From assembly GCA_004377185.1 (NCBI GenBank), contig SOIM01000036.1:11890-75889 (forward strand): 64,000 nucleotides of DNA, read 5' to 3'. A program made the translations under genes and the position numbers. This DNA is from Methanomassiliicoccales archaeon (GTDB taxonomy: Archaea > Thermoplasmatota > Thermoplasmata > RBG-16-68-12 > SOIM01). Shown one piece after another: positions 9,145 through 43,076 of this stretch. Each line of letters begins with the position of its first letter. Positions within the stretch are counted from its first letter, which is position 1. A model generated the notes under the pieces. The model did no database searches. It was not told the origin of the DNA and saw only the letters and a program-made list of their open reading frames with translations.

Positions 9145-9450
9145 CTATTTCTGAAGATCCTTGCCCAGCCGCCTCTCCACGCTCTCGACCTTGCGCTTGA
9201 TGGCGTCCTCAGAGCCCTTCCTATCGTCCATCTTGATGGTCGTGACCACCCTCTCGCAATCCTCCAGGATCGCATCGTGGCACTTCTTGATGGTGCTCAT
9301 TATCTCATCGTAACCGCCTTCCAGTATGGTTCCCATCGGGGTGAACTGGTATCTCAATCCGCTCTGGTCAACGATGTCAAGTGCTTTGGCCACGTGTTCG
9401 CTCAGGCTCACGCCTTTACCCACTGGCAGTATGCTGAATTCCACAATCAA
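9145..9450 (-). CDS. MTH1187/YkoF-family small protein (DUF77, thiamine/ligand-binding fold).
   Basis: 101 aa. MIVEFSILPVGKG...TPMGTILEG pattern typical of the MTH1187 family. Confidence 0.55.
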   Translation of the reverse strand: MIVEFSILPVGKGVSLSEHVAKALDIVDQSGLRYQFTPMGTILEGGYDEIMSTIKKCHDAILEDCERVVTTIKMDDRKGSEDAIKRKVESVERRLGKDLQK

Positions 9451-9499
9451 GAGTCCATCCTCCTGTGTCAGATCACGATCGCAAACGGAAGCGATATCC

Positions 9500-10975
9500 T
9501 CAACCCTTTACAACTCCCATGGGGCGCATCCTTGCTATCATCCTGGATATCCCAGCTCCGTGCGCAATCCTTACAACGTCCTCAATGTCCTTGTACGCGT
9601 CCGGGGCTTCCTCAACTATCCCGTCCTTGCTCGCGGCCCTTATGTAGATCCCTCTCTGACCGAGAAGATCCTTGACCTGGTCCACCCGGAATCTCCTCGT
9701 AGCTGCCTTTCTGGACATGACCCTTCCAGCGCCGTGACAGGTGGAGCCCCAGGTCTCCTTCATCGCATTGTCCGTACCGATGAGCAGGAAGCTGGCCGTC
9801 CCCATGTCACCCGGTATCAGAACTGGCTGACCCATGTCCCTGTACTCCTGCAGAACTTCCTCCCTGTCCTTTCCGAACGCCCTGGTCGCCCCCTTCCTGT
9901 GTATGCAGAGCTTCTTTCTCTTCCCGTTCACATCATGCTCCTCGATCTTCGCGATATTGTGGGCCACGTCATAGATGACCCTGAGACCGAGATCCTCCGC
10001 GGGCTGTCCGAAGACCTTCTCGAAGGACTCCCTGATCCAGTGCAATATCATCTGTCTGTTCGTCCATGCGTAATTGGCCCCGCAGGCCATTGCTTTCAGG
10101 TAGTCCTGACCCTCGTCCGAATTGACCGGGGCGCAAGCGAGCTGCCTGTCCAAGAGATGTATGTTGTATTTCCTTCCCGCACGCTCCATCACCCTGATGT
10201 AATCGGAAGCTATCTGATGTCCGCACCCTCTGGAGCCAGTGTGGATCATAACCACCACTTGGTTCTCGTGGGTGACCCCCCACTTCTTTGCGATCTCTGG
10301 CTCGAATATCTTGTCCACTCTTTGTATCTCGAGAAAGTGGTTGCCTCCGCCCAGGCTTCCAAGTTGCGGTTTCCCTCTTTCGATAGCTCTATGGCTGACC
10401 TTCTCGGAGTCCGCGATGGAATAGCACCCGTTCTCTTCCAGATGTTCCAGGTCATCCTCCCATCCATATCCTTCTTCCACCGCCCATCTGGCACCGATGT
10501 CCAGCACTGTCGTGAGCACCTTGGTGTCCACCCTGACCTTGCCCTTTGAACCCACTCCGGACGGAACGTTCTCGAACATCTTGTTGATGATCTCCTTGAT
10601 CTTGGGCTTCACGTCCTTATCATCCAGATTGGTTGTGAGCATTCTTACCCCGCAGTTTATGTCGAAACCCACGCCTCCCGGAGAGACCACTCCCTCCTCG
10701 AGGTCGAACGCAGCCACGCCTCCTATCGGGAATCCGTAACCCCAGTGTATGTCCGGCATGGCCATGGAATTGCCCACTATCCCGGGGAGCGTCGCGACGT
10801 TCGCAACCTGCTCTAGAGCATTGTCCTTGACCACGGACTTCATCATCTTCTCGTCCGCGTAAATGATTCCATCTGTGCGCATCTCCTTTTTGTACTTCTG
10901 AGGGATCACGTAGCGGAAACCGTCCAGTTTCTGAATGGGCCCCTTCCATGGATGCATTTTTTCACCTTCAGTCAT
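9500..10975 (-). CDS. rtcB: RNA-splicing ligase RtcB (tRNA ligase).
   Basis: Canonical RtcB motifs: [23 protein letters not shown], and the GTMG[TS]ASF-like GDMGTASF. 491 aa, so no intein insertion. Confidence 0.9.
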
Positions 10976-11120
10976 CTATGATGTGGTTGCTTAAATTGTT
11001 TTGGGGGATTCTGGTGTTGTTCTCTCATTGTGTTCGGACCCGGGCGGTTCCGTGAGGAAAGAGGTGAGAAAAGCTCTTTGTGACAGGTCCAGTCATATGA
11101 GGGACATCTGTCGGGTTGCT

Positions 11121-11132
11121 ATCAATATTGAT
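11121..11132. promoter_or_regulatory. Perfect 12-nt palindrome ATCAATATTGAT in the divergent rtcB / zinc-ribbon-gene promoter region; candidate operator.
   Basis: Seen directly in the sequence. Lies in a 200-nt AT-rich intergenic region between divergent genes. Confidence 0.3.
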
Positions 11133-11180
11133 AAAAGTAGCATAAAGGTTTTTCCAATGTCCAATAGATAGCCGACCGTT

Positions 11181-11903
11181 ATGTCCTCTCAGAGCAGAGC
11201 CCGTTATCCCGTCCAGACTTCGGTTGGACCACGGATTCGGACAAAGGAAGATATCAATCATATTCTGATGCAGATGCAGAAAAGGGAGGCGATGGTGAAA
11301 ACCCTCCAGAGAAAACTGGCCATCAAAGGAGCCACGCTGAACAAGGCCGAGAAGAAACTGAGGAAAAGGTCGGAATTTCTGGATGCTTGGGAGGTCAGCC
11401 TCAAGACCAAGGAAGTCGAGATGGTCTCAGAACGGGACGAGATAGAAAGGCTGAAGAGGCTTTTGAGGAAAGTGGGCGAGGACCTCCTGGCCCTGTCGGA
11501 GAGGACGGAGCCAGATTTCGAGAGCATTTCCATCGATGAGGATATCATAGAGGATATGACTCTCCGGGAGGAGCCAGAGGAGAAGAAGTCCTTCTTGGGA
11601 TTGTTCAAGGGCAAGTCGAAGAAGTCCAAGAAGATCTTCAAATCTCCACCGAGGCGTAGACCTCCCCCCTCAAAGGAGAGGCAGGCGCTTCGAGAAGCAT
11701 TGGAAGCCAAGAGAGAAAGGCTGAGGTCCCAATCCGCTGAAGAGCTTACATTGGAAGATATCGAAGAACCGCTGGAAGATGAATTGGGCGTTGAATTGGG
11801 CGAAGAGGAAGCGGTCTATTCCTGTCCCGCCTGCGGAACCGAGATCTCCTTGAACGATGAGGTCTGTTCGGGCTGTAATGCGGAGTTGAATTGGGGCACC
11901 TGA
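11181..11903 (+). CDS. Coiled-coil protein with C-terminal zinc-ribbon (CPACG...CSGC). Start uncertain; an internal ATG lies near 11268.
   Basis: K/E/R-rich heptad-like region, acidic stretch, terminal CxxC...CxxC. No recognisable family. Confidence 0.4.
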   Translation: MSSQSRARYPVQTSVGPRIRTKEDINHILMQMQKREAMVKTLQRKLAIKGATLNKAEKKLRKRSEFLDAWEVSLKTKEVEMVSERDEIERLKRLLRKVGEDLLALSERTEPDFESISIDEDIIEDMTLREEPEEKKSFLGLFKGKSKKSKKIFKSPPRRRPPPSKERQALREALEAKRERLRSQSAEELTLEDIEEPLEDELGVELGEEEAVYSCPACGTEISLNDEVCSGCNAELNWGT

Positions 11904-11944
11904 TCCCGCACGCTTTTCCTTCCATGGTGCGAGTCTTTTGAGAA

Positions 11945-12493
11945 TCACAGGATGTTCCCGATGGACGATCCGAAGAAGCTGAGAACGCCTTCTATGAACG
12001 CTAGAATGGAGACGATGAATGCAACCGGCCTCCAGCCTATTATCTTTGCCAAGAAATCCAACACGAACTCCAGCGCCCTCAGAGGAAAGAAGACTACGAG
12101 GAATATCACGAAGAAGATTATTACAAGCCCCCACGGAACGAGCCAAGACAAGATTGGTTCGGGAAGGAACTTATAGAGGAGATAGACCACTAGCCCAGCG
12201 ACGGCCAGGGCCAGAATGAGGGACCATGTCAGGTTCTCAAGAGGCTTTAGGACGAGGACAAATCCCGTAATCAGGAATATCACCAAGAATGCCGTTCCGT
12301 ATCCGCCGTTGAGGAATGTCAAACCAACAACGACCAAAGCCAGGATGCCGAAGAAGAAAGCGATGATGAGGAAAACCTTGTCCGCGATCATGGTGTCCTC
12401 TCTTCTGAGAAAAGCAAGCAACATCAACGCGATCGCACACATGATGAGAACAATCGAGGGAACCGGGTGTTGGGTAAGGAATTCAAGTGCCAT
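11945..12493 (-). CDS. Integral membrane protein, 5-6 TM, unknown function.
   Basis: Strongly hydrophobic 182-aa ORF. The overlapping plus-strand ORF 12216..12722 looks like an antisense artefact. Confidence 0.4.
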   Translation of the reverse strand: MALEFLTQHPVPSIVLIMCAIALMLLAFLRREDTMIADKVFLIIAFFFGILALVVVGLTFLNGGYGTAFLVIFLITGFVLVLKPLENLTWSLILALAVAGLVVYLLYKFLPEPILSWLVPWGLVIIFFVIFLVVFFPLRALEFVLDFLAKIIGWRPVAFIVSILAFIEGVLSFFGSSIGNIL

Positions 12494-12579
12494 CAGGGTT
12501 CATTATGAGAATCCTAATAAATGTTCTTTCGTGCGATATGTTCAAGTAAGCATATCAGCTTATCCATTGCGTCCGAGGA

Positions 12580-13092
12580 ATGGTGAGGTTGGAAGAAGAC
12601 CGGAAGAGCAGCCCCAAGAAGTTGGTAATCATCGCTATTACCATCGCAGTCATTGTTGTGGTTTCGGTGGTCCTCTGGGAGTTCGTCCTGAGAGACTTCT
12701 TCAAAGGCGGAGAGGGCACTGAGTATGAGATCGAGATGTGGCAGGGTGACCAAAGAATCGGTGTGGTCAAGATGTCTAAATTGGAGACTCTACCCACCGT
12801 TAGCTATCTGGACGTTTTCAGTGACAGAGATGACGTAATTGATGAAGGTCCTCTTGTGAAGGATGTCATCCTCTTGAGGATTAATGAGAGCTCTTTGACG
12901 AATGAGACGTCCATATACATAAAAAGCGATTTGACTGGTGAGGAAAGGACGATATCCTGGGGTGAGATTTCCAATATTTCAAAATCATATATACTGGATT
13001 TCACAAAGAGAGGAACTACTAAGTTCAGCTCACCAGAAACAGAAAAGAATGAAAGGGTGAGAGACGTTACCGAAATCAGAATAGGAGTGTAG
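12580..13092 (+). CDS. N-terminally membrane-anchored hypothetical protein.
   Basis: One TM segment (LVIIAITIAVIVVVSVVLW) followed by a hydrophilic domain. Confidence 0.35.
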   Translation: MVRLEEDRKSSPKKLVIIAITIAVIVVVSVVLWEFVLRDFFKGGEGTEYEIEMWQGDQRIGVVKMSKLETLPTVSYLDVFSDRDDVIDEGPLVKDVILLRINESSLTNETSIYIKSDLTGEERTISWGEISNISKSYILDFTKRGTTKFSSPETEKNERVRDVTEIRIGV

Positions 13093-13098
13093 GAAACA

Positions 13099-13713
13099 GT
13101 GAGAACCGAGACGCCTTCGATATCACAGAGAATAGAGAAAGATGCTGCGGTTCTTAGTGGATATGAACATCTGAAGGGGTGGCTGTACTCGGTCGCTGTG
13201 ATTGCCTGCTTTTCCGTATTTGTGGCGCTTTCCAAAGGTTATCTCAGAGTGCCGTTACACATTCCTGGCCACAGTGCTATCTATGTAATCCCGCTGCTGT
13301 TAGTGGGAAGACTGGCCTCGAAGAACAGATTCGGTGGAATGGGGATAGGATGCCTTTCCGGAGGGATAATGGCATTTACCGGGATTGGTGGTGGATTCCT
13401 CTTGGCAATACCTCGCTACCTCCTGATGGGCGTCGTCATTGACCTTCTCCTCTGGAAGGAATGGACGCGGGAGAACATGACTGTCGTTGTTGTTGCAGGA
13501 GCGTTCGCGAACATCGCCAAGTTCCTAATGGGAATGGTCATCGCAACTCTTATCGGAATACCGGCGTTCTTCATACAGTTGGGAATGACGTACTCTCTCG
13601 TGACGCATCTGGCCTTTGGTGTGGCGGGCGGTCTGGTCGCGTTTGGGGCATTGAAAGCGGTCAGACATGTCCAGAAAGGCGTAACAAAGAGAAGTCAAAG
13701 GACGACTGGGTAA
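13099..13713 (+). CDS. Small polytopic membrane protein, possibly an ECF-transporter S-component.
   Basis: 204 aa, about 6 TM, Gly-rich helices. Family assignment is from memory only. Confidence 0.35.
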   Translation: MRTETPSISQRIEKDAAVLSGYEHLKGWLYSVAVIACFSVFVALSKGYLRVPLHIPGHSAIYVIPLLLVGRLASKNRFGGMGIGCLSGGIMAFTGIGGGFLLAIPRYLLMGVVIDLLLWKEWTRENMTVVVVAGAFANIAKFLMGMVIATLIGIPAFFIQLGMTYSLVTHLAFGVAGGLVAFGALKAVRHVQKGVTKRSQRTTG

Positions 13714-14423
13714 TAGGCTCCGTCCTTTTCGACCACAAAGAGTACTGGTTTTCCATCAATACGGCTCGGACGTATCCTATCGGCCATTGCCACCGAGCCT
13801 TCTGTCAGCCTTCCCCCCTCATCCAAGAGCACTGTGTCTATCCCCATCTCTCCAAGTCTTGCTGCCGAGACCGTCCCTTTCAGTTCTCTCAGCCCTTTGA
13901 GCATGACGTATCTTCCGTCGCTTCCAGATGAACAAAGCCCTATTCCAGCAAGTGCACCGATTACGCCATCGCCGCTCCCACCGATTTCCTCCAGTCTTAT
14001 GTTTCCTTCTTCAGCTACGTTTAGTGCATCTTGCTTTGTGAGAACCTCCCTTTGAGTCTTCAGACCGAAGTCCACTATGGATTCTGGAACCGTCTCCGCC
14101 ATCGCCAGTCCCGGGTCGCTTCCTTCTTGGAACCGATCCACAATGATTTCTTTGACCGCTTCGAACACGTCAAAATCTAGAGACTCGGCCGATCTGGCCA
14201 TTATGACATTGCAGCTGTTTCTTTTGGTATATCTTATAGAAGGATGTATGAACAACTGATGTCGCGTGATGCCAAGGACGTCCAAATCCAGTATTCGAGC
14301 GATTCTCCTGGCCAATCTTCCAGTTCCCTCTCCTCCCACAACATCCGTGTCGTCAATGGATATGAACAAGCGGCCTCTCATCTTGGGTGGTTGAATGAGG
14401 CGGAAGGAAATATGTTTTGCCAT
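13695..14423 (-). CDS. Short TiaS-like (DUF1743-type) domain protein.
   Basis: N-terminal LFISIDDTDVVGGEGTGRLARRIARIL recalls the TiaS N-terminal I-D-D-T-D motif. C-terminal GVIGALAGIGL recalls the TiaS G-L-I-G-A-L-A segment. At 242 aa it is far shorter than TiaS (~420 aa). Confidence 0.35.
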   Translation of the reverse strand: MAKHISFRLIQPPKMRGRLFISIDDTDVVGGEGTGRLARRIARILDLDVLGITRHQLFIHPSIRYTKRNSCNVIMARSAESLDFDVFEAVKEIIVDRFQEGSDPGLAMAETVPESIVDFGLKTQREVLTKQDALNVAEEGNIRLEEIGGSGDGVIGALAGIGLCSSGSDGRYVMLKGLRELKGTVSAARLGEMGIDTVLLDEGGRLTEGSVAMADRIRPSRIDGKPVLFVVEKDGAYYPVVL

Positions 14424-14429
14424 GGGCCA

Positions 14430-17021
14430 CTATCGAACAACCTCAAGGTCCCCGGAGATCAATGCCGCCTGCCTCTCGTCCAGGCTCTGAAGGTTGAAGG
14501 GAATCAACAAGGTTGTTCTCCCAACACCGACTGAGTCCGTGAGGGAATGGATGAGCTTCAGGACCTTTCTGAAGTCGTTCTGAGCTATGAGGTATTCGAG
14601 CCCGTCGATCAAAATGAAGTTCCGGCCCCCTTTGTTCTCACTGAGGAACTTCTCTACCTGACTAAAGATTGCACCCAGGTTCGTTGGAACCATTCCACCC
14701 TTGTCGAAGTCTCTGCTGAGCCAATGAACCTTTGCTCCAGACAGATCGTACTGCTTCTTGAGATTGGGGGGATAGGTACGGGTGAAGCAAAGCCCATTCG
14801 ACCCTTCTTCCATCTCGGAGATCAATGTCTCGAAGCTTCTCTTGCGTCCGTCCTCTGCGAGGATATACCCCTTGCCTTCCTCGGGCTTGAATTCGAAAGG
14901 CTCCGAGACCTCGTCCGAGGGTTCCGGCTCCTCTCTCCGCTTCTTGCGCCGTTTTGCCCACAGTGCCAGTAGGATGGCTAACAGAACAACGACGATTGGA
15001 AGTATGATGGCTATCATAAGAAGCTGTGCGGATAGATCGTCACCACCATTCCCTCCATTGGGAACAAAGGCCAGATATCCCTCAAATCCCTCTGTGTGGG
15101 ATACGGACATGTGTACTGTTCGGAGATTGTTAGTGATGTTGTATCTGTCCAAAGTCACGTTCAGCTGAATGGAAGTGAGTGTCGGGTTCCCGGGACCGGA
15201 GAAGGTCTCGTACAGTACAACTTGCCACTTGACCCACCCTCCAGAATCAGTGAACTTGGGCAATATCGGCACCTGGTCCAGTATCAACTGCACGGAGGAG
15301 CCGGCAAGCGGTTGACCGTCTGTGTCGTAAACCCACACGTCCAGGAAGTTCTGGACATAGAGCCAGGACCCGGACGAAACAGCAACCAATGTGTCGTCGA
15401 AACTGCAGTTCAATGCCGTGACGGTTGATCCTCCGCTGACTCGGAAGCTCTCAGGCGAGGAAGTGATTGTTGAGTTCATCATCAGCACATCATGTGTTGT
15501 TGTGAAAAAGAGTATCCCACTCGAGATCGTATCCCGCGAGAACGTTAGATTTGTGGATAGTGATATCCAAAAGGCGAAGACGTCTGCGTTGATTGCACTC
15601 CCTTCAACTAGGAAATCCTGTGAACTTTCCAGTCTTATGCCATTATCCACCGCAGATATCACATTGTCTTTGATGGTAAGAGAGGAGCTACTCGCCCATA
15701 TCCCCCTCCCGCTGATCGCGAATATATGATTCCTTTCAAACGTTCCATCCGTATCGTCAACCACCACACCGTCATTGCATCGGAGAATCTCTGAGTCCAT
15801 CAGATTGAGCGTCGATTCGAAGGCATAGACCCCTCGGTCTGAATCAATGACAACCAACCCAGAAAGGGAAACCACGGACTGGTATATCTCAATCCCGCTG
15901 ACCGAGGAGTTGGTTATCTTTATGTTTGCAAGACTGGGCGAGGCGCTGTTGAGCACGATTCCCTGCTGAGAGTAGTTCACTTTGATGTGGTTAAGAACAG
16001 ATTCTGCGTCTACGCTCTCATCCTCAAAGAAAACCCCTTTCCAGTCTCCCTTACTCGCTGGGTAGGAATATGATGTTAGGGTTATATTCGAAGTCGAAAA
16101 GCCCTCCATCACCAGAGTACCTCTTACTGTCAAGCTGGCATCTGGGCAGAACCTAATTGTAGATCCCGCTAGTACAGTGAGCTTGACATCAGACTCTATA
16201 GTGATGTTGGCGCACACGCCGAAGGGGCTGTCGGTGAGATTCCATTCCTCATTGCTAGTAATGGATTGGTTCTTCCAGGTTTTGACCCTCCTTGGGATCA
16301 CATCAAAGTAGGCAGTGTCACTCAGAGGTGCAACTCCCTCGTAGGAGGCCACAACCTCGAAATTGGTGCCAACGAAATTTATAGTCCAGTAGCTGTAAAC
16401 CTCAACAGAGCCGTTGGTCTCTATGCTGATTGGTGTTTTCGTCTCGTTGAAAGCTTCAGAACCGTTAGGATAGTTCCACACAAAGGAGACATTGTCCAGG
16501 TATGTGCCATTGCCGAGGAAGGTCAGGTTGGCAGATGCCTTGGCGGTTGTGCCGTTTTCGTAGAAATTACTGTTGAGGGATAGGTTGAGGGAATCTACAT
16601 ACACAGCATCCTCATAGTGTGAGACGTTGAAGTAGGTCTCATCAAACTCGGTCGAAATATTGTGTATGCCCTTCACTCTGAAGCCAGTCCCGGTCATATT
16701 GGATGTCCAATTGCTGAATGCCCCAAGGTACTTGGTGTTACCTATCTGGTATGGGATTGTCTCCAATGTCTTGTTGAAAATTGTCACATTTGCTGGGGTG
16801 AACCATTCAAAAGTCATCGTCAGATTGGGCGGGGATCCAATAGAACCAGTCCACTCGATGATAAACCTTGCTTGAACAAGCTCTCCAATGAAATGGTCAG
16901 TCTTGTCAGTGGACACTTCGGCAGTATCCCCAGTGATGGGTGCCTGAACAGTCACAGGCACCATGATTCCCGCTAGCAACAAGATTAGAGCTAACAGGGT
17001 GCGTAAGAGCGAGCCACGCAT
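14430..17021 (-). CDS. Large exported right-handed beta-helix (NosD-like) surface protein with one C-terminal TM helix and a cytoplasmic DUF835-like domain.
   Basis: Signal peptide MRGSLLRTLLALILLLAGIMVPVTVQA. Many N-x-S/T sequons and beta-helix repeats. TM LLMIAIILPIVVVLLAILLALWAKRRKKRRE. The ~170-aa cytoplasmic tail (GYILAEDG...ILIDGLEYLIAQNDF...LLIPFNLQSLDER) resembles the archaeal DUF835 family. Confidence 0.6.
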   Translation of the reverse strand: MRGSLLRTLLALILLLAGIMVPVTVQAPITGDTAEVSTDKTDHFIGELVQARFIIEWTGSIGSPPNLTMTFEWFTPANVTIFNKTLETIPYQIGNTKYLGAFSNWTSNMTGTGFRVKGIHNISTEFDETYFNVSHYEDAVYVDSLNLSLNSNFYENGTTAKASANLTFLGNGTYLDNVSFVWNYPNGSEAFNETKTPISIETNGSVEVYSYWTINFVGTNFEVVASYEGVAPLSDTAYFDVIPRRVKTWKNQSITSNEEWNLTDSPFGVCANITIESDVKLTVLAGSTIRFCPDASLTVRGTLVMEGFSTSNITLTSYSYPASKGDWKGVFFEDESVDAESVLNHIKVNYSQQGIVLNSASPSLANIKITNSSVSGIEIYQSVVSLSGLVVIDSDRGVYAFESTLNLMDSEILRCNDGVVVDDTDGTFERNHIFAISGRGIWASSSSLTIKDNVISAVDNGIRLESSQDFLVEGSAINADVFAFWISLSTNLTFSRDTISSGILFFTTTHDVLMMNSTITSSPESFRVSGGSTVTALNCSFDDTLVAVSSGSWLYVQNFLDVWVYDTDGQPLAGSSVQLILDQVPILPKFTDSGGWVKWQVVLYETFSGPGNPTLTSIQLNVTLDRYNITNNLRTVHMSVSHTEGFEGYLAFVPNGGNGGDDLSAQLLMIAIILPIVVVLLAILLALWAKRRKKRREEPEPSDEVSEPFEFKPEEGKGYILAEDGRKRSFETLISEMEEGSNGLCFTRTYPPNLKKQYDLSGAKVHWLSRDFDKGGMVPTNLGAIFSQVEKFLSENKGGRNFILIDGLEYLIAQNDFRKVLKLIHSLTDSVGVGRTTLLIPFNLQSLDERQAALISGDLEVVR

Positions 17022-34464: not shown

Positions 34465-35052
34465 TTATTTGTTCTGGGCTTTCTTCTTAAGAAATCTCCT
34501 CTCATCCAGCCAGATTCTCCAGGCATATTCGCCTTTTCTGACAAGCAGCAGGAAGAACACCATGCAGAGGATGAAGATCGTGGAAATTACCACAATGTGC
34601 CAGATTGCCGCATCAGGAACGTGATTCTGAAGGTCTATAGCGAAATCTGAGAAAGGCCAGAAGTAGAAGAGGCCGTCTGTGGCTCTCGTGTAACCCAGCG
34701 TGTTGGGCACATCCAGAGCGAAATGGAGGAAGACACCAGAGAAAGCGCAAAGTGCCACGTTCTCTTTTGAATATATGTAGATCCCCAGTGTGATGACCAA
34801 TGCCAGAACTATCCCGATCAGAAAAGAGTGTACCGGTCCTCCGTGAATGTCATGGAAGGCTTGAATTCCCATGAATATCGAGAAGCCGTCAATGTCAGGT
34901 ATGACGGCCGCCAGGGTTAACGCCCTCATCTTGTTGAGGCTGACATTTGCCTTCCGACCAGCGGCGTAGGCGACTATGTAGTGCGAGAAGGGATCCACGA
35001 CGTTCCGAAATAGTACCACTTCAAATAACTTTCCAAGTCGATTCTGTCGCAC
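34465..35052 (-). CDS. Membrane-bound metal-dependent hydrolase-like protein (DUF457/YdjM-like).
   Basis: Polytopic protein with His/Asp-rich loops (FSHYIVAYAAG, HDIHGGPVHSF). Confidence 0.4.
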   Translation of the reverse strand: MRQNRLGKLFEVVLFRNVVDPFSHYIVAYAAGRKANVSLNKMRALTLAAVIPDIDGFSIFMGIQAFHDIHGGPVHSFLIGIVLALVITLGIYIYSKENVALCAFSGVFLHFALDVPNTLGYTRATDGLFYFWPFSDFAIDLQNHVPDAAIWHIVVISTIFILCMVFFLLLVRKGEYAWRIWLDERRFLKKKAQNK

Positions 35053-35524
35053 TGACCACTTCTGGGATGTTTCTCACTGTACGCCCACTTCCTGATTTTC
35101 CTTCTTCATCCAGGAGGAAGCCCCTGATGCCGACTCTCTCTGCTGGCAAAATGTCGTTCAAGTAACTGTCCCCCACGATCAGCGCACGCTCCTTTGGGAT
35201 ACCTCTGGCTTTGAGGAACTTCATCATGTTCTCCCCTTTGTCCCCGTTGATTACGATGTCGGTGAAGTACTCCCGGATGCAGAGTTGTCGAAGAAGAGCG
35301 GGAAGCAATTCCGTCCTGTGTGTTGAGACCACCACCAGGATACAGTTCATTCCTATCAAAACCCCCAGCGTCTGGAGAACCCCATCATTCAGCTCGAAAT
35401 GCTCAGTTGCCCTTTTCAGTGTGTGATCTCCTCCGTCCCAGAAATCGGAATAGCTCTTGCCCTCTCTGGGTACGTACAGAGTTCCCTCCGCGTCGAAGAA
35501 CACAACTCTGCTGTGCTTGTCCAT
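35021..35524 (-). CDS. HAD-superfamily hydrolase/phosphatase.
   Basis: Motif I FFDAEGTL, motif III K..., motif IV IVGDSYLNDI. Confidence 0.65.
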   Translation of the reverse strand: MDKHSRVVFFDAEGTLYVPREGKSYSDFWDGGDHTLKRATEHFELNDGVLQTLGVLIGMNCILVVVSTHRTELLPALLRQLCIREYFTDIVINGDKGENMMKFLKARGIPKERALIVGDSYLNDILPAERVGIRGFLLDEEGKSGSGRTVRNIPEVVSATESTWKVI

Positions 35525-35615
35525 ACTTATTGATAGATTCGTGGTCAGCTACATGGTGTGAACTGAATATAGTTTGAAGGAAAATAATACTATATACAAC
35601 AATAAACATATCGTA

Positions 35616-35628
35616 TGAACATTGTTCA
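35616..35628. promoter_or_regulatory. Perfect palindrome TGAACA-T-TGTTCA, about 25 nt downstream of the TATA-like ATACTATATAC (35588-35598) and 18 nt upstream of the first CARF gene; candidate operator overlapping the predicted TSS.
   Basis: Seen directly in the sequence. Position relative to the TATA box follows archaeal promoter geometry. Confidence 0.35.
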
Positions 35629-35646
35629 AACAATAGGAGATAGAAT

Positions 35647-36285
35647 ATGACCGTACTGTTCGGGACACTGGGATGGAGACCTCAGAGCCTCACACCATCG
35701 ATAAGAACCACACCCAACATAGAGAGTCTGTACTTCTACCACAGCGAACACAAGAAAAGTATCGAGGCAAAGGACAGGGTGGTCGAATACTGCAACGGCA
35801 TTGGTCTCCCGGTAGTCCCCATTCAACTGTCCGATGCGTTCAATCTCGTTGAGATTGCCAAGAAGATCAAGGAGGACATAAGAAAGGTCAAATCGGAAGG
35901 GCGTTCGATAGCCCGTTTCAACATTGCTGGCGGTACCAGATTGATGAGCTCCGCGGCTCTACTCGTTTGTATACTGGAGGGGATTCCAACGATCTACGTT
36001 CATGACGAAACCTTTGAGGAGATCCAGTTGCCTTTGCTGCAGATCGAGTATTCGTCAGGGCTTACAACCAGACAGAAGGAGATACTGGACCACATGCGCA
36101 AGTCCAAGAATGAGACATTCACCCAGACCGAGCTGGCGAAGGAAATGAAGATTCATAAGGCTACGATGAACCATCACATCACCGAGCTGAGGAAGAAGGG
36201 GATGATACTGGTTTCCAAGGATGAGAATGATGAGAGGTTGAAGAACATTAGACTGGCACCTTCTGTGGACCTCCTGCTGGAGTGA
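35647..36285 (+). CDS. Csa3-like CARF-domain + winged-HTH transcription regulator.
   Basis: N-terminal strand VLFGTLGW and the CARF core signature NIAGGTRLMSSAALLVC ([DN]-x-[ST]-x-x-x-[RK] followed by a small-residue helix). C-terminal wHTH TQTELAKEMKIHKATMNHHITELRKKGMI. Same domain order as Sulfolobus Csa3, recalled from memory. AGGAGA sits 7 nt upstream of the ATG. Confidence 0.6.
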   Translation: MTVLFGTLGWRPQSLTPSIRTTPNIESLYFYHSEHKKSIEAKDRVVEYCNGIGLPVVPIQLSDAFNLVEIAKKIKEDIRKVKSEGRSIARFNIAGGTRLMSSAALLVCILEGIPTIYVHDETFEEIQLPLLQIEYSSGLTTRQKEILDHMRKSKNETFTQTELAKEMKIHKATMNHHITELRKKGMILVSKDENDERLKNIRLAPSVDLLLE

Positions 36286-36923
36286 TTCTGTTGGGAGCTC
36301 TCCGAGTTCTTCTGACTACATTTGGTTTTGATGAAGGCAAGATAATTGCCACGATGAGGATGCTGGCCTATGACAAGCTGGTTGTCATCACGGGACAGGA
36401 CTCTCTACAGAAGAAGGGCTACAACCGTCTCCTGGAGATAGAATCCAGTGCCCCGAACAGCATGGAGACAATCGTCGTAGATGTGTTCGATTTCATGGAC
36501 TGCTTCCGGAAGGTGGATGAGACAATCGCGAAATATGACCTGCCCGGGAACGAAGTGATACTGAACATCAGCGGAGGGACGAAGGTGCTCTCAGATGCGG
36601 CCTTGCTGGCAGGTTTTCAGAACGGTATCAAAACTTTCCATTGCGAAGAGGATCTGATTGAACTGCCGGTGATTATCGGCTTCAGCGTCACGGAGCGATT
36701 CACTCCGTTGCAAAGGGGATTACTTCGGGAGATGAGCGCCCCAGTGGAAGTCAAGAAGCTCGAGGCCAAGCTTACGAAGAAGGGATACCCCTTGTCGTCA
36801 GTTCAAAGGGCGGTGAGGGAACTGAAGAAGCTGGACATTCTGGGTGTGGACCTGAGCAAGAAGGGGATCCACCTGTATCTGAAGGAATCCCACCAGTATT
36901 TCCGGGAAGCTCTAGCAGGTTGA
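36282..36923 (+). CDS. Second Csa3-like CARF + wHTH regulator (paralog), GTG start overlapping the upstream stop.
   Basis: LLTTFGFDEG strand-1. LNISGGTKVLSDAALLAGF CARF signature. C-terminal helix-turn-helix LQRGLLREM...SSVQRAVRELKKLDILG. Confidence 0.55.
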   Translation: MILLGALRVLLTTFGFDEGKIIATMRMLAYDKLVVITGQDSLQKKGYNRLLEIESSAPNSMETIVVDVFDFMDCFRKVDETIAKYDLPGNEVILNISGGTKVLSDAALLAGFQNGIKTFHCEEDLIELPVIIGFSVTERFTPLQRGLLREMSAPVEVKKLEAKLTKKGYPLSSVQRAVRELKKLDILGVDLSKKGIHLYLKESHQYFREALAG

Positions 36924-36976
36924 TGCAAAACCTATATTACGCCAAATGACCTTTCAAATCAAGAGGAGGAGAGTCG

Positions 36977-37450
36977 CTGAAGGTCTACATAACTCTCGCA
37001 GGACAAGCGGAATGGGCTATGCCCAACTCTCTGTGGGCCAGCATTAGAGATCATGGTTACATTCCGGATAGAGTATACATCTGCAGTTCGAAGAAGAATG
37101 TAAAGGGCGCATCCAAGAACAAGGAGAGAGTTTCCGCTCTCCTGGAAGGTTATGACAGAAAAGTGACCGTCTCGATAGTGGAGATACCCGAGAACAATTT
37201 TGTGGAGATAGGGAATACGATAGCCGATATCGTGAAGAGGGAGAAGAAAGCAAGGAACGAGGTCGCTCTTGACATAACATCTGCGAGAAAAGCCATTGCC
37301 AGTCCTGCCCTCATCGTTGCAGACAAGTACAAGGCCGACCACATCTTCTATCTGTACATCGAGGACGTGACCAACGCCAACAGGCCCTACATGATGATTC
37401 CGATGAAGATACAGCATTCGAACGATTTCCTTTCAGGGGGGAAGGGATGA
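36977..37450 (+). CDS. Stand-alone CARF-domain protein (no HTH). The first ATG is at 37019, but the conserved CARF strand-1 (VYITLAGQAEW) lies upstream, so a CTG start at 36977 is proposed.
   Basis: ALDITSARKAIASPALIVA matches the CARF [DN]-x-[ST]-x-x-x-[RK] signature. The upstream in-frame LKVYITLAGQ parallels strand-1 of the two Csa3-like genes. GAGGAGG at 36963-36969 sits 7 nt before CTG 36977. TATA-like CTATATTA at 36932-36939. Confidence 0.45.
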   Translation: MKVYITLAGQAEWAMPNSLWASIRDHGYIPDRVYICSSKKNVKGASKNKERVSALLEGYDRKVTVSIVEIPENNFVEIGNTIADIVKREKKARNEVALDITSARKAIASPALIVADKYKADHIFYLYIEDVTNANRPYMMIPMKIQHSNDFLSGGKG

Positions 37451-38520
37451 CCGAGAGGATCGTGAGCCGGGATTCCCTCATGGTGTTGTTCAATGAACTG
37501 TATTCCAGGCGCAAGGATTCCCTTCATGTGAAGTACCCCTTCTATGACATCAGTCTGTTCGACTTTCAGTCAGATTTCCGAATAGCGAATGTGGTGGGAA
37601 AGGAGAGGCTTCAAGAGATACGTTCCGAGCACATACCTGAGAACAGTTTCCTGCGGGACGATTTGCCTGGGTATCAGGAACTGGAGAGCAGTTTCCTTTC
37701 CTGCGGCCTGCTGGATTATGACAACTGGGACGAATTCAAGAAGTGGATGAGCGATTTGGTTGCAGATTCCAAGGATCCCAGAAGAATGGTCGGTTCTCTC
37801 AGTTTCGCGATCGATACCAGTGTTCTCTACAACAAGCTCTTCTCGGCCTATCTACCTGTGAAGGATCTTGGCTTCAGTCTGGACGAAATCGATGTGGTCA
37901 TAAGTGATGTGGTCAGGGGTGAGGTTTCCAGTCGCATCAAATACAAATACAGATCTTCCGACCTGCAGGACTTGAAGCAGGTCTTCCGCAACCGTCGCTT
38001 CTTGGACGAGTTCGCCAACCGAAACATGCTCGGTACCAGGAAAGCCAAGCTGGCACAGAAGGAACTGGACACTTTCACAAGGGAGTTGTCGGCCCCTCGT
38101 GTTGCAGGAGGAGAAGTTCCCAAAGATAACGAGGAGAGGGACATTGAGATCGTGAAGACCTACAAGGTGTTCTCACAAAAATGCGGGATGAACATTGCCT
38201 TGATAACCATGGATCAGAACATGGCGGACCATGCCAAGAACGGAGGTGTGATGTACCATACTCTGGTCTATCCAAGGGAAGCCTATAAAGGAGGTCCGAT
38301 CCCTCCTTGGAGTTGCCTTCAACTGTTTCACGATCTTGCTGTGAAGTTCGGAGTTCTCGTTCTCAGCGGGATAGGCGTTGTTGTTTTCGGGGAATGGAGG
38401 GGAAAGACGAGCCAGGACTACACCAAAGAGAAGCTGAAGCTTTTGATTGATGAGAATTCCGTCATCCATAACGAGCTCGTTCGTGATCTGGATCTATGTG
38501 AGAAGATGCTGAGGATTTGA
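37447..38520 (+). CDS. PIN-like putative nuclease with uncharacterised N-terminal (~110 aa) and C-terminal (~90 aa) extensions; ATGA-coupled to the CARF gene.
   Basis: LSFAIDTSVLYN (PIN motif-1 Asp), then acidic residues, and NIALITMDQNM (PIN motif-3-like T-x-D). Start overlaps the upstream stop (ATGA). Confidence 0.35.
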   Translation: MTERIVSRDSLMVLFNELYSRRKDSLHVKYPFYDISLFDFQSDFRIANVVGKERLQEIRSEHIPENSFLRDDLPGYQELESSFLSCGLLDYDNWDEFKKWMSDLVADSKDPRRMVGSLSFAIDTSVLYNKLFSAYLPVKDLGFSLDEIDVVISDVVRGEVSSRIKYKYRSSDLQDLKQVFRNRRFLDEFANRNMLGTRKAKLAQKELDTFTRELSAPRVAGGEVPKDNEERDIEIVKTYKVFSQKCGMNIALITMDQNMADHAKNGGVMYHTLVYPREAYKGGPIPPWSCLQLFHDLAVKFGVLVLSGIGVVVFGEWRGKTSQDYTKEKLKLLIDENSVIHNELVRDLDLCEKMLRI

Positions 38521-39407: not shown

Positions 39408-40279
39408 TACAATCCCATCCCCTGATTCTTCTTCAGTCTTCTCTCCGTTCTCATGAACACCGCGTATCCCAGGAGCGGGACGATGGCAGCGAACACGAAG
39501 ATGATCGCCAGATCAATGTACCAGTGTTCAAAGAAATACCCAACATCAAGCAGAGATGCCCTCACCCCGTTCGTCATCCAGGTGGGAGGAAATGACAGTG
39601 CCACGTATCTGAGAAAGGGAGGGAGAACGGTGACCGGGAAGTAGACCCCCATGAAGAACGCCATGACCCACTGGAGCATGTTGATGAGCGAGCTCGCTTC
39701 CTTGACCTTCAGGATCAGCGCGCCGAACATGAAACTGATGCCCCAGAGGGGCAGGAGGCCGACCATGATGAAAAGCACCGCTATCATGATGTTCCCTTGA
39801 AACGGGTTCACGCCAAAGATTAGCGAACCCAGCAAGAAGGATAAGATGAAGGCTACGAAGGCTCGAATGAGCGCGTATCCCGTCACGCCTCCGATTACCA
39901 AGTACTTCTTCGCGGGAGTGACCCAGACAGACTCCAGAGTGCCCGTGACCATCTCCCTCCTCACCCAGAACCCCACGAGCCAAGTCATCAGTGAGACGAC
40001 CATGAAGGTGCAGGAGCCGATCAACATGAAAGCCTTGAAATCGCCCGTCCCAGTGGAGATCTTCCAGTTCTCGGCCACAGGGGTTCCACCGCTTGCCAGG
40101 GAAACGCCAAGCATTATCGGCAGGGCCGCGAAGACTATGGGCATGAACAGCTCCATCAGCAGAGAGCCCTTGTATCTGGAGATGATGATAAGTCTCACCT
40201 TCAGCACGGACGCGAAAACGCCGAAAGTGGTCCTCGGGGTCTTCTTGTAAAGACCCAGACCAGCGATCGATGTGGCCAC
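39404..40279 (-). CDS. ABC-2 type transporter permease.
   Basis: Six TM; start overlaps the stop of the ATPase gene. Confidence 0.65.
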   Translation of the reverse strand: MATSIAGLGLYKKTPRTTFGVFASVLKVRLIIISRYKGSLLMELFMPIVFAALPIMLGVSLASGGTPVAENWKISTGTGDFKAFMLIGSCTFMVVSLMTWLVGFWVRREMVTGTLESVWVTPAKKYLVIGGVTGYALIRAFVAFILSFLLGSLIFGVNPFQGNIMIAVLFIMVGLLPLWGISFMFGALILKVKEASSLINMLQWVMAFFMGVYFPVTVLPPFLRYVALSFPPTWMTNGVRASLLDVGYFFEHWYIDLAIIFVFAAIVPLLGYAVFMRTERRLKKNQGMGLY

Positions 40280-41325
40280 TATACCTTGCCTCCCGCCTCT
40301 CCCTTCTTTTCCTTGGAGAGCTCGGACGTATCCACGCTCAACGCCCTTCCCGTTTCGGCGATGAACACATCCTCCAGTGTGACATCCTGTGGTTTGATAT
40401 ACTCGATTTGTACATCATTCTCAAGCAATACCTCCATTATCTTCGGCAAGATCTTTCTGCTGTTGTCGCACATGACGCTAAGCGTTGACATTCCGGCCTT
40501 CACGTCCTTGATGACGGCCTCCCTCACTCCAGGTATTGCTCTTATCTTCTCGGCAACCCCTTTCGGGATCACCCCTCCAAGGTTGATGACATCCTGGACC
40601 CTGAGGGATTTCTTCAGTTCGGCCGGCGTTCCGAGGGCGATGATCTCTCCTCTGTCAATGATGGCCACTCTCTGGCACAGCTCGTCCGCTTCGAACATCT
40701 GGTGCGTGGTGTAGATTATGGTATGGCCCTCTCTGTTGAGCTCTTTGACTATCCTTCTCAGTTCCCTTGCTGCGTGAACGTCCATTGTTACAGTAGGTTC
40801 ATCCAGGAAAAGAATGGGTGCATCATTCACCAGCGATTTTGCGAAGGCTGTGATCATTTTCTGTCCGCTGGAGTAGGTCTCCACCGTCCGGTCCAGGAAT
40901 TCCCGCATGTTCAGAAGATCTGCGAGATAAGTGATTCTCTCCTTCCTTTTCTCCTTTGGGACGTGATAGAGCGCACCAAAATATTCCAGGTTCTCCCGGC
41001 CGGTGAGTTTCCAGTAGAGCCCCCTCTCACCCATCAGCATGCAGCCCAAGGAGGCTCTTACGAGATTCTCCTCCTTTTGCAGGTTGAAACCGTTCACCCA
41101 GGCCGTTCCCTCGGTAGGTATGAGGAGGGTGGTCAAGCACTTGATTAGGGTTGTTTTTCCTGCGCCATTGGGTCCCAACAGGCCGAATATCTCACCGTCA
41201 TAGATGTCCAGATTGATGTTCTTGAGAGCCTGTATCTTCCTCTTCTCGGGTCTGAGGAACCTTTTTCTCTCTTTGGATATGAATGTCTTGGACATGTTCT
41301 GAACTTTGATGATGGCTCTTGGCAT
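40279..41325 (-). CDS. ABC transporter ATP-binding protein (exporter-type, DrrA/CcmA-like).
   Basis: Walker A GLLGPNGAGKTT, signature YSSGQKM, Walker B ILFLDEPT, H-loop. Confidence 0.85.
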   Translation of the reverse strand: MPRAIIKVQNMSKTFISKERKRFLRPEKRKIQALKNINLDIYDGEIFGLLGPNGAGKTTLIKCLTTLLIPTEGTAWVNGFNLQKEENLVRASLGCMLMGERGLYWKLTGRENLEYFGALYHVPKEKRKERITYLADLLNMREFLDRTVETYSSGQKMITAFAKSLVNDAPILFLDEPTVTMDVHAARELRRIVKELNREGHTIIYTTHQMFEADELCQRVAIIDRGEIIALGTPAELKKSLRVQDVINLGGVIPKGVAEKIRAIPGVREAVIKDVKAGMSTLSVMCDNSRKILPKIMEVLLENDVQIEYIKPQDVTLEDVFIAETGRALSVDTSELSKEKKGEAGGKV

Positions 41326-41447: not shown

Positions 41448-43076
41448 CTACTTGCCCTTCTTCTTTACAGGGAGACTCTTCAGTGCGTGATCCATGATCC
41501 CCTGAATGTTCTTAGAAAACTTCTCCACATCTTCCGAGGACATTGGCTCTGCTTCCAGAATGTGACGTGTGTAAGTCTGGTCAATATAATGGAGCTCACG
41601 CAAAAAGCCGAGAAAGACAACATCAAGCCTCCTCAACTCTCTCTGGGCCTCCTGGATTCTCTCACGAGGCTTGGCAACAAAGACTCCATAGATAGTGCCA
41701 GATGTTCCAGGTATGGCAGTCAATACAACTCCTGCCCAGCCTTCCAAGGAACCTTCGTTGAACAAGGCAATTAGGGCACTGGCAAGAATGAAAAAGATCC
41801 CAACTCCGAAGACAACAAGATCCATCGTTGTGGTGGTTTTGTAGGTTTCGTACGCACTATCTGAAAATTTTTTGTGTTGGTTTCGAATATTTTCTTCTGC
41901 GTTCTGAATCAGACCGAAATACTCCCGCCTTATCGAATCTCGAGCTCTGAGCTTCTCGTAGGCTTCAGCGCCCCCCATCTGCATAAGTAGCTTCCGTCCA
42001 GCCTCTTGACGTTCCGATGTTCCCGAAATCATGGCAGCCTCAAGCTCATCTGGTACCTTCTTCCCTCCCATCACAAGCCCTTTCATATGTCGGAGAGCAT
42101 CCGCCAGTTTCTTTATATTGTCAGAATCAATTGCGGCGTCCACTATATGACCAACTGCTTCTCTGGTTCCCACAGTCTTCTCGAGTGATCTGGCTGCTGT
42201 ACGGACAACGAGAGGATTGTCATCATCAAGTTCTTCTCTCAGGATGGACTCCGCTCTCTTCTCTTCCAGATTGCCAAGAACAGCCAGAGCTTTGATTCTC
42301 CAACTGTCATGTCCCAGGAAACGCCTGCTCTTGTCAACAAACCCCATTAGGGCTTTTGAAGAATTCTGAGCTTCCTTTGTGCCTCTCGGTACCAGGCTCA
42401 GTGCGGTTATTGCAAGATAGACATTGGGGTCGTATTCCGCCCTCCTGTATGTGTCAACGGTGTACAATTGCACTATGCCAATGACAATCATTACAGCCTC
42501 CTGGACATACACAATGCGCAGAGCACGCAATGCCTGCCATCTATTTGCCTCGTCTTCAAGTACATCCATGAGAGCCTTTTTTGAATCATTCTCCTTCTCC
42601 GCCAATATGGCATGGGAGAGACTTCTGACCAAATCATGTTTTTCTTTGGCCTTCACTTCTCGCGCAATATCTTTCAATTCGGACGGATTTCCCACAGTGA
42701 GCCCTGCAAGTGTCCAATATCTGACCCATTGGTCCGTCTCGTATTGGGCATCGAGAATGTGCTTTTTTGCCTTCACAAGGGCGTTCTCGTCCTTGCCACT
42801 CAGCCTTCCCAGACTACTCAACAGCCAGGCACGAGTCAAGGCGATAGAAGGATCTTTCAACTTCGACTCCATCCCAGGGGAGCAGTCTTCCTCAATGGAT
42901 TTGATGATCAGGTGACAGAGAACTTCCCGAAACTTCTTGCTGTCCAACCATTTCACAATCTCTCCCTGTACTTGAATTCTCTCAGCCTCACGACCGCGAG
43001 CCAAAATGTTGTGTATCCTGGCCGCTTCAGACTCTGGATTAGAAACCATTTGTGTACCTCCAGATTTTATACCCAC
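41448..43076 (-). CDS. HEAT/PBS-lyase-like repeat protein with one internal TM helix and a cytoplasmic C-terminal tail; first gene of the ABC-2 operon.
   Basis: Repeated ~30-aa helical repeats with the motif LGxLG...A..AL. TM MDLVVFGVGIFFILASALIALF near residue 395. Confidence 0.45.
   Translation of the reverse strand: MGIKSGGTQMVSNPESEAARIHNILARGREAERIQVQGEIVKWLDSKKFREVLCHLIIKSIEEDCSPGMESKLKDPSIALTRAWLLSSLGRLSGKDENALVKAKKHILDAQYETDQWVRYWTLAGLTVGNPSELKDIAREVKAKEKHDLVRSLSHAILAEKENDSKKALMDVLEDEANRWQALRALRIVYVQEAVMIVIGIVQLYTVDTYRRAEYDPNVYLAITALSLVPRGTKEAQNSSKALMGFVDKSRRFLGHDSWRIKALAVLGNLEEKRAESILREELDDDNPLVVRTAARSLEKTVGTREAVGHIVDAAIDSDNIKKLADALRHMKGLVMGGKKVPDELEAAMISGTSERQEAGRKLLMQMGGAEAYEKLRARDSIRREYFGLIQNAEENIRNQHKKFSDSAYETYKTTTTMDLVVFGVGIFFILASALIALFNEGSLEGWAGVVLTAIPGTSGTIYGVFVAKPRERIQEAQRELRRLDVVFLGFLRELHYIDQTYTRHILEAEPMSSEDVEKFSKNIQGIMDHALKSLPVKKKGK

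Follow-up and report, generated by a model that had tools for sequence, protein, structure and literature searches.

In Csm6 and Csx1 (CARF-HEPN) and in Can1, Can2 and Card1 (CARF-PD-(D/E)xK), a small nucleotide ligand acts by way of a CARF sensor to control a promiscuous nuclease (PMC8284326, PMC7969007). The genes for these proteins lie in or near type III CRISPR loci, and in each protein the sensor and the nuclease are fused. To our knowledge, a single chain holding both parts is found in every CARF nuclease characterised so far (Csm6, Csx1, Can1/2 and Card1). The same logic is proposed here for a pair of overlapping genes on the forward strand of a 64,000-nucleotide stretch of DNA from a Methanomassiliicoccales archaeon (assembly GCA_004377185.1, contig SOIM01000036.1, positions 11,890 to 75,889), hereafter the window; in this case, however, sensor and nuclease are encoded separately, the nuclease fold is PIN, and no cas gene occurs within 64 kb. 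The upstream gene (36977..37450) encodes a 157-amino-acid (aa) protein consisting of a CARF domain only, and the downstream gene (37447..38520) a 357-aa PIN protein. The reading favoured here, at rather better than even confidence, is that the two genes encode two subunits of one ligand-gated PIN (ribo)nuclease, with the CARF protein sensing in trans.

CARF-PIN proteins are not a new kind: the family is already represented by the CARF_m1 models of PADLOC, from which the family names used below are taken and which we take to be derived from the 2020 CARF classification. The fused CARF_m1-PIN proteins of Thorarchaeota (P0059, P0177–P0193; PADLOC model PDLC01973) are homologous to both window proteins over their full length, with 25–27% identity. 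The best structural match is SiRe_0806 of Sulfolobus islandicus, a 429-aa ‘PIN domain-containing protein’ that binds cyclic oligoadenylate (cOA) and has been solved in its apo form (9jxw) and with the cOA species cA4 (9jxx). SiRe_0806, which presumably belongs to the Sulfolobales CARF-PIN group (ST0035, Msed_1167), is a single chain with its own ligand-binding part, whereas the window PIN protein has no CARF domain. A literature search on 9JXW/SiRe_0806 found no paper, and no published mechanism for a CARF-PIN effector was found in the literature searched.

Results

A split counterpart of fused CARF-PIN proteins

The ATGA coupling of the two genes, noted in a first-pass annotation made from the sequence alone, is present as described: the PIN start codon (ATG, 37447–37449) overlaps the stop codon of the CARF gene (TGA, 37448–37450). 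The junction reads ...GGGAAGGGATGACC..., in which a purine-rich GGGGGGAAGGG is followed by ATGA (37436..37450, forward strand), placing the PIN start over the CARF stop. Both products fall, in order, on the PADLOC model CARF_m1--CARF_PIN (PDLC01973, 465 positions), the CARF protein on positions 2–144 (E 7e-27) and residues 5–333 of the PIN subunit on positions 171–454 (E 2.3e-22). BLASTP against fused P0059, whose group includes proteins labelled Candidatus Thorarchaeota by NCBI, placed the CARF protein on residues 11–162 (E 2e-14) and the PIN subunit on residues 177–527 (E 2e-29). Because this placement is colinear, the gene boundary of the window corresponds to the 14-aa linker of P0059. The order of parts in the ~530-aa Thorarchaeota chains (CARF, N-terminal domain, PIN, C-terminal domain) is that of the window pair, which has the effector part of the PDLC01973 profile and a CARF_m1 sensor with its ligand-binding signature, but in two polypeptides rather than one.

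Genomes of the species of the Genome Taxonomy Database (GTDB) were scanned with a degenerate DNA pattern for T.D..M..H-52aa-G.W.GK, which was checked on the window and samples the Thermoplasmata-like part of the family only. The scan gave 41 loci, 40 of them with a PIN gene and nearly all from metagenome-assembled genomes (MAGs) labelled Thermoplasmata, Thermoplasmatota or Methanomassiliicoccales; the 41st, on a Bacteroidales contig, was a chance match. A CARF_m1 open reading frame (ORF) lay directly upstream, in another frame, in 35/35 loci with upstream DNA, and was fused to the PIN gene in none. When these 35 loci were counted together with the window and loci L001–L004 (n = 40), the two genes overlapped by 4 nucleotides (nt; ATGA or GTGA) in 29/40 and by 8–14 nt in 9/40, they abutted in 1/40, and the junction was undetermined in 1/40. 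Purine runs resembling a Shine-Dalgarno (SD) sequence were seen upstream of the PIN start. Four complete chromosomes (CP070767.1, CP070739.1, CP070751.1 and OY970070.1) are among the sequences in which the pair occurs.

The arrangement recurs in a clade only ~21% identical (P0120, P0169 and P0175), where the CARF_m1 gene overlaps the PIN gene by TAATG and its product, 284–290 aa long, is fused to a C-terminal extension judged by eye to be a probable winged helix. Arf/Ras-type GTPase and translin genes occur among the neighbours of these three, for which reason the clade is probably Asgard.

ORFs in two different frames whose products together follow the order of a fused protein might also be a single CARF-PIN gene broken by a frameshift (through sequencing error or as a pseudogene) or read by programmed frameshifting. 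This explanation was rejected, its likelihood being negligible: the pair is split in every Thermoplasmata locus examined, and in each a separate start codon and an SD-like purine run are present. Moreover, in L013, L019 and L024 a stop closes the PIN frame just before the PIN start codon, leaving no frame to shift into, and stand-alone proteins of 330–385 aa make up most of the best 150 of the 233 representative clusters of the PIN family described below.

A small gene overlapping a downstream PIN gene is also the typical vapBC layout, and PIN domains are common as toxins. By that logic, in line with the toxin–antitoxin-like pair mooted in the first-pass annotation, the PIN protein would be a toxin that is active by default, kept in check by the CARF protein until a signal causes this inhibitor to be released or degraded. 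Such a reading is unlikely, and in its classical form it is not supported. Where vapBC pairs a DNA-binding antitoxin (AbrB, ribbon-helix-helix, helix-turn-helix or Phd) with a compact VapC of ~130–150 aa, the window pairs a CARF-only protein, without any DNA-binding antitoxin fold, with a PIN protein of 357 aa that is 2.5 times larger and has two extra conserved domains. The existence of fused single-chain versions is a misfit with a labile antitoxin, and the chromosomal position of the locus is stable and syntenic, not mobile.

A three-part PIN protein

The 357-aa product of the downstream ORF (37447..38520, forward strand) is identical to TET90096.1, annotated as a ‘hypothetical protein’ of a Methanomassiliicoccales MAG. 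That the ORF is not a chance frame follows from its relatives: a word-indexed search recovered 17 close, full-length homologues (348–358 aa, 61–99% identity), and an exhaustive profile search recovered 233 representative clusters at E≤1e-3. Fused forms numbered four among the best 150 of the 233 clusters (P0059, P0060, P0061 and P0144; 510–531 aa), and in these the match to the PIN subunit begins at about residue 175–240. A homologue search with the diverse alignment as query gave two clades only.

Only the middle of the protein had seemed PIN-like on first inspection, and Pfam PIN models are indeed restricted to residues ~122–268: PIN_4 matched residues 123–268 (E 3e-4, 21.5 bits against a cut-off of 21.9) and PIN_12 residues 122–216, while an NCBIfam scan gave no match. 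Conservation was assessed in an alignment of 69 members with 20–37% identity to the 357-aa query, of which 32 matched PIN_4 (E<0.01, best 2.6e-8) and 15 matched PIN_12. Residues 1–116 and 273–357 matched no Pfam family in any of the 69, and further Pfam domains, none of them in the N- or C-terminal parts, never occurred in more than one member. The description of these two regions in the first-pass annotation as unassigned extensions thus holds as far as family assignment goes. They are not loose add-ons, however, but integral parts of the CARF-PIN effector, since in the 69 members their conservation and gap-freeness equal those of the PIN core and both are present in the fused proteins.

Residues D123 and D232 were invariant across the alignment, and N16, P31, T124, N125, E159, K167, R198, I235, D256, P276, G315 and G319 were at least 90% conserved. 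The two putatively catalytic aspartates named at the outset, those of AIDTS and ITMDQ, are D123 and D256, and so fall in the invariant and the at least 90% conserved class, respectively.

One locus, in a Thermoplasmata MAG (L012, JALHSX010000324.1, 3–1468), carries its PIN gene in two frames, covering profile positions 2–92 and 91–357; this is a frameshift, due to either pseudogene formation or an assembly error.

Predicted fold of the PIN protein

Given only the 17 close homologues, AlphaFold2 (AF2) returned a model with a predicted local distance difference test (pLDDT) score of 52, which was discarded; given the 69-sequence alignment, it returned one with a pLDDT of 96 and a predicted template modelling (pTM) score of 0.93. 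The PIN nuclease core, identified by Pfam PIN_4/PIN_12, AF2 and Foldseek, comprises residues 117–272 (37795..38262, forward strand). It begins with a strand (117–122) ending at D123, continues through a helix (154–163) carrying E159, a helical insert at ~166–227, a helix (228–246) running from D232 and a strand (248–254) followed by D256, and ends in a closing strand (269–272). Two features of the PIN superfamily are present: a parallel beta-sheet flanked by helices (AF2, Foldseek), and four acidic residues at strand ends and helix starts, the codons of which lie on the forward strand at 37813–15 (D123), 37921–23 (E159), 38140–42 (D232) and 38212–14 (D256).

Foldseek comparison of this model with the Protein Data Bank (PDB) was headed by five chains of 9jxw/9jxx (E 5e-6 to 5e-5, query TM-score (TMq) 0.42–0.49, ~290–370 aligned columns), with the PIN proteins AF0591 (1o4w), Dis3/Rrp44 PIN, Utp24 and Nmd4 coming next (probability 0.9–1.0); the Foldseek viral library gave weak PIN/PhoH matches only. 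When the family profile was run against PDB sequences, 9jxw (E 1.6e-3) was the sole entry below E 0.01. Queried one sequence at a time against the PDB, the PIN protein, the CARF protein and fused P0059 gave nothing meaningful. In the profile alignments, D123, E159 and D256 align to motifs of the solved PIN domains 3i8o and 1o4w, and D232 and D256 to motifs of 9jxw; the tetrad corresponds to the DTN / E / D / T.D motifs of 1o4w, 3i8o and 9jxw. SiRe_0806 resembles the window protein in its DTN and D..I / T.D motifs, in an ‘SG’ helix before the first PIN strand and in a post-core helix (helix 287–300 of the window protein aligns to SiRe_0806 residues 351–358), although the two are only 11–13% identical in sequence and SiRe_0806 has no sequence match to the CARF_m1 partner.

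Structure prediction followed by Foldseek, the first check put forward for this protein, therefore yielded a PIN fold in which the canonical acidic tetrad is in place, so that the model does show the acidic site whose absence had been named as grounds for dropping the nuclease assignment. The 357-aa protein is accordingly read as having a PIN_4-type metal-dependent nuclease core, most likely that of an RNase.

The N-terminal domain (residues 1–116; 37447..37794, forward strand), which in fused proteins lies between CARF and PIN, is modelled with strands 2–7, 25–30, 35–41 and 45–47 and helices 8–20, 52–60, 67–72, 76–85 and 94–108. It showed no Pfam, PDB-sequence or CARF similarity: its profile against the PDB gave chance matches only (E ~0.1), to an influenza haemagglutinin ‘YPYDVPDYASL..SSG’ stretch, and the possibility that it is a degenerate CARF domain was rejected (hhalign against CARF_m1, probability 0.2%). 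It is predicted to be a docking or linker domain toward CARF. The C-terminal domain (residues 273–357 plus stop codon; 38263..38520, forward strand), also present in fused homologues, is modelled with helix 287–301, strands 303–307, 311–314 and 329–334, and helix 341–356; P276 and the loop G315-E-W317-x-G319-K320 are near-invariant.

The CARF protein and its probable CTG start

Read from 36977, the CARF protein (36977..37450, forward strand, 157 aa; identified by PADLOC and BLASTP) matched PADLOC CARF_m1--CARF over positions 2–154 of 156 (E 3.2e-36). It keeps a T..G motif after strand 1 and the sequence DITSARK, and the T..G and DITxxRK motifs are conserved in both split and fused forms. In CARF domains generally, the ligand pocket is characterised by a T..G motif together with a [DN]x[ST]xxx[RK] signature (PMC4012209). 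Near the C-terminus of the CARF protein, a ‘fYLy...PYxmIP’ segment is conserved as well.

Ring-nuclease activity is frequent among small CARF-only proteins (PMC12409355, PMC8284326), and one could imagine the 157-aa protein as a stand-alone, Crn-like enzyme that degrades cOA, with the PIN protein as a functionally independent neighbour. We consider this very unlikely: the protein has no match to Crn1 (ring nuclease) in NCBIfam, its counterpart by homology in the fused CARF-PIN proteins is their CARF domain, and even between deeply diverged lineages its gene stays strictly adjacent to the PIN gene, with stop and start overlapping.

The first strand of the CARF domain (KVYITL...) stands directly after an invariant CTG in eight genomes of the window clade (window, L001, L002, L004, L010, L019, L024 and L044); to include this conserved strand, the protein must begin at CTG 36977, the coordinate also given in the first-pass annotation, not at the first ATG, 37019. 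An SD-like GGAGGAG (36965..36971, forward strand) lies 5 nt before the CTG and is conserved in 8/8 of these genomes. Further upstream is a TATA-like element, AAAACCTATATTACGCC (36927..36943, forward strand), which from its sequence is a putative promoter of the CARF-PIN pair's own; AAAAYCTATATTAYGCC occurs ~35–50 nt upstream of the CTG in 7/8 related genomes, is one base off in L024, and is also kept in genomes without the Csa3-like genes described below. Between the in-frame stop (36947 in the window) and the CTG there is no ATG, GTG or TTG in the window, L024 or L044, and in the window no other appears before ATG 37019. The first 13 codons from the CTG are conserved, with mostly synonymous substitutions, and in other clades an ATG is found at the CTG position or within three codons of it. 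Given the conserved CTG, SD-like sequence and upstream element, the lack of any ATG, GTG or TTG in three genomes, the mostly synonymous changes and the nearby ATG of other clades, it is very likely that the CARF gene initiates at CTG 36977. ORF callers either begin the protein too late, at ATG 37019 (143 aa), or lengthen it from a spurious start further upstream, and this CTG start makes the CARF partner of the PIN protein easy to mis-annotate.

An antisense ORF of 152 aa (36959–37417, reverse strand) lies inside the CARF gene and is longer than the ATG-initiated CARF ORF; it looks spurious, and could displace the real CARF in automatic annotation.

Genomic surroundings

Immediately upstream of the pair are two genes, overlapping one another by 4 nt, for Csa3-like regulators in which a CARF domain is joined to a winged helix-turn-helix (wHTH). 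Regulator A (35647..36285, forward strand, 212 aa; PADLOC CARF3--CARF PDLC01853, E 1.7e-97) matched Pfam Cas_APE2256 and MarR_2 and NCBIfam cas_HTH (Csa3; E 1e-11), and has NIAGGTR at the CARF strand-4 position. Regulator B (36282..36923, forward strand, 213 aa; PADLOC CARF3--CARF PDLC01856, E 3.6e-74) matched Pfam HFX_2341_N and Csa3_N above cut-off, and has the motif NISGGTK. Csa3 proteins are regulators, not nucleases, and belong to the CARF3 clade, as against CARF_m1 of the window pair. One such gene also precedes the pair in P0120 and P0169, which suggests that Csa3-like neighbours share a signal with the CARF-PIN pair.

The window thus has three consecutive CARF genes and, in its 64 kb, no cas gene. 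Regulators A and B also stand next to a divergent HAD hydrolase gene, forming a block (35021–36923) shared by the window, L002/L003 and L010 and missing from L001, L004 and L044; L019 and L024 have the A/B genes, and these loci end before the HAD position.

The window pair is flanked on one side by genes for a 2-oxoacid:ferredoxin oxidoreductase, a GNAT acetyltransferase and YdjM, and on the other by genes for an ABC transporter, agmatinase, aIF5A and Nop5. Throughout the window clade (61–99% identity), the pair holds a fixed position between YdjM and the ABC transporter, and other Thermoplasmata clades have fixed neighbours of their own (a TPR protein, a GAF histidine kinase, glutamate synthase subunits, a Na/H exchanger). 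PADLOC matches to mad3, AriA and GajA in the window were generic matches given by the ATPase of the ABC transporter (40279–41325), not defence genes, and an extra Csa3 match elsewhere was to the wHTH end only of an 866-aa protein. A 542-aa ORF (41448–43076, reverse strand) lies in the interval that separates the ABC transporter from the conserved gene after it, with no counterpart there in L001–L004 and no PADLOC match; its translation resembles a helical-repeat protein that has membrane segments at the C-terminus.

The fused genes of Thorarchaeota, like the window pair, are not next to cas genes; they differ in having another conserved neighbour, a gene of ~500 aa that in all four loci stands immediately before the fused gene on the same strand (L050 8407–9924, L051 8480–9976, L052 1–1485, L053 8365–9924). 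Its product gave weak matches to families of the metallo-beta-lactamase (MBL) fold in the three loci where it was looked up, the fourth copy touching a contig end. It could work together with the fused protein, perhaps as a phosphodiesterase or an RNase.

In P0120 and P0169 the pair, preceded by the Csa3-like gene, is followed by a superfamily 1 (SF1; AAA_11/AAA_12) helicase gene. After the helicase comes a ~370-aa gene of unknown function and then, in L046 (P0120), a PLD-family nuclease; the L048 contig (P0169) ends before that point. The L046 module (8481–16542) lies beside type I restriction–modification genes, and that of L048 (8450–14814) beside a DEAD/MZB helicase gene, which could be DISARM-like. 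In both loci the CARF/PIN pair could be the centre of a more extensive defence system.

Discussion

That a PIN nuclease might be controlled by a separate CARF subunit, as first proposed from the sequence, is supported computationally by colinearity with the CARF-PIN profile and P0059, by the conserved gene pair and by the PIN fold. In the mechanism we envisage, the 157-aa CARF_m1 protein would be the sensor, probably as a dimer, because CARF domains work as dimers, and would bind a nucleotide-type second messenger in a pocket made of the strand-1 T..G and strand-4 DITxxRK motifs. The 357-aa protein would be the effector, its PIN core flanked by an alpha/beta domain on the N-terminal side and by the C-terminal domain on the other; one or both of these domains are likely docking surfaces for CARF in a physical complex, expected to be A2B2, since the same domains join the nuclease to CARF in the fused relatives. 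The stop/start overlap would couple translation, supplying both subunits together. Ligand-bound CARF would then switch on, rather than inhibit, the D-E-D-D metal site of the PIN domain, much as cA4 or cA6 does in Csm6, Csx1 and Can1/2, and the substrate would likely be RNA, by analogy with most PIN nucleases. The messenger itself would be a cOA, for which cA4 is the leading guess, by analogy, because SiRe_0806 was crystallised with cA4 and Csa3 proteins bind cA4 (PMC8699464).

Several observations weigh against this picture. The PIN_4 score of the window protein falls 0.4 bits short of the Pfam cut-off. The CARF_m1 protein has no sequence match to solved CARF structures, so that the identity of its ligand is not transferable from any of these. 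For ST0035, a CARF-PIN protein, cA4 is reported to bind weakly and to induce no RNase activity (PMC6546367); this is the sole biochemistry on a CARF-PIN protein found in the literature searched. Nothing in the surroundings, moreover, ties the locus to CRISPR-Cas. The window contains no CRISPR array, its 55 other ORFs gave no match to cas, CBASS, Pycsar or other cyclase models in PADLOC (E≤1e-5), and flanks of 4–10 kb around homologues in Thermoplasmata, Thorarchaeota and the Asgard-like clade contain no cas gene, CRISPR array or known cyclic-nucleotide synthase. A position in or next to a cas locus (cas10), as is characteristic of type III systems, is thus not seen within the window and the examined flanks, and no source of cOA is evident there.

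It is because there is no cyclase nearby that a CRISPR-independent signal stays a serious alternative. The same two-subunit module would then respond not to a product of Cas10 but to, for example, another nucleotide messenger or damaged RNA ends, and the PIN protein would act in a stress or RNA-turnover response that is vertically inherited in Thermoplasmata. We hold this to be possible at well below even confidence, and are a shade more tentative about its extension to a CRISPR-independent, vertically inherited, two-subunit signalling nuclease complex of both Thermoplasmata and Asgard archaea. Besides the lack of cas and cyclase genes in every neighbourhood examined, such a signal is consistent with the constant place that the pair occupies on the chromosome in each clade, surrounded by housekeeping genes, and with the IMG/VR viral contigs, in which no viral or mobile-element copy of the family was found. 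There is also a precedent in RtcR, whose CARF domain is regulated by tRNA fragments (PMC7790460). On the other hand, RtcR mostly lacks the strand-4 basic residue of nucleotide/cOA-binding CARF domains (PMC4012209), which is kept here, and the closest solved structure, SiRe_0806, binds cA4. Csa3-like regulators, which are cA4 binders in Saccharolobus (PMC8699464), adjoin the pair in two distant clades, and the search for cas10 covered only the window and the examined flanks.

What is new is therefore not the CARF-PIN family but a split, cas-unlinked and vertically stable pair of sensor and nuclease, for which no published biochemistry was found. A natural family in two pieces is convenient for studying how a CARF ligand signal passes to a nuclease across a protein interface, and the stable place that it keeps in Thermoplasmata, away from cas genes, makes one ask where the signal comes from. 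If that signal is indeed independent of CRISPR and the two proteins form one complex, the pair would stand as a characterised example of a nuclease controlled in trans by a CARF sensor, and of archaeal CARF signalling fed by a messenger that Cas10 does not make.

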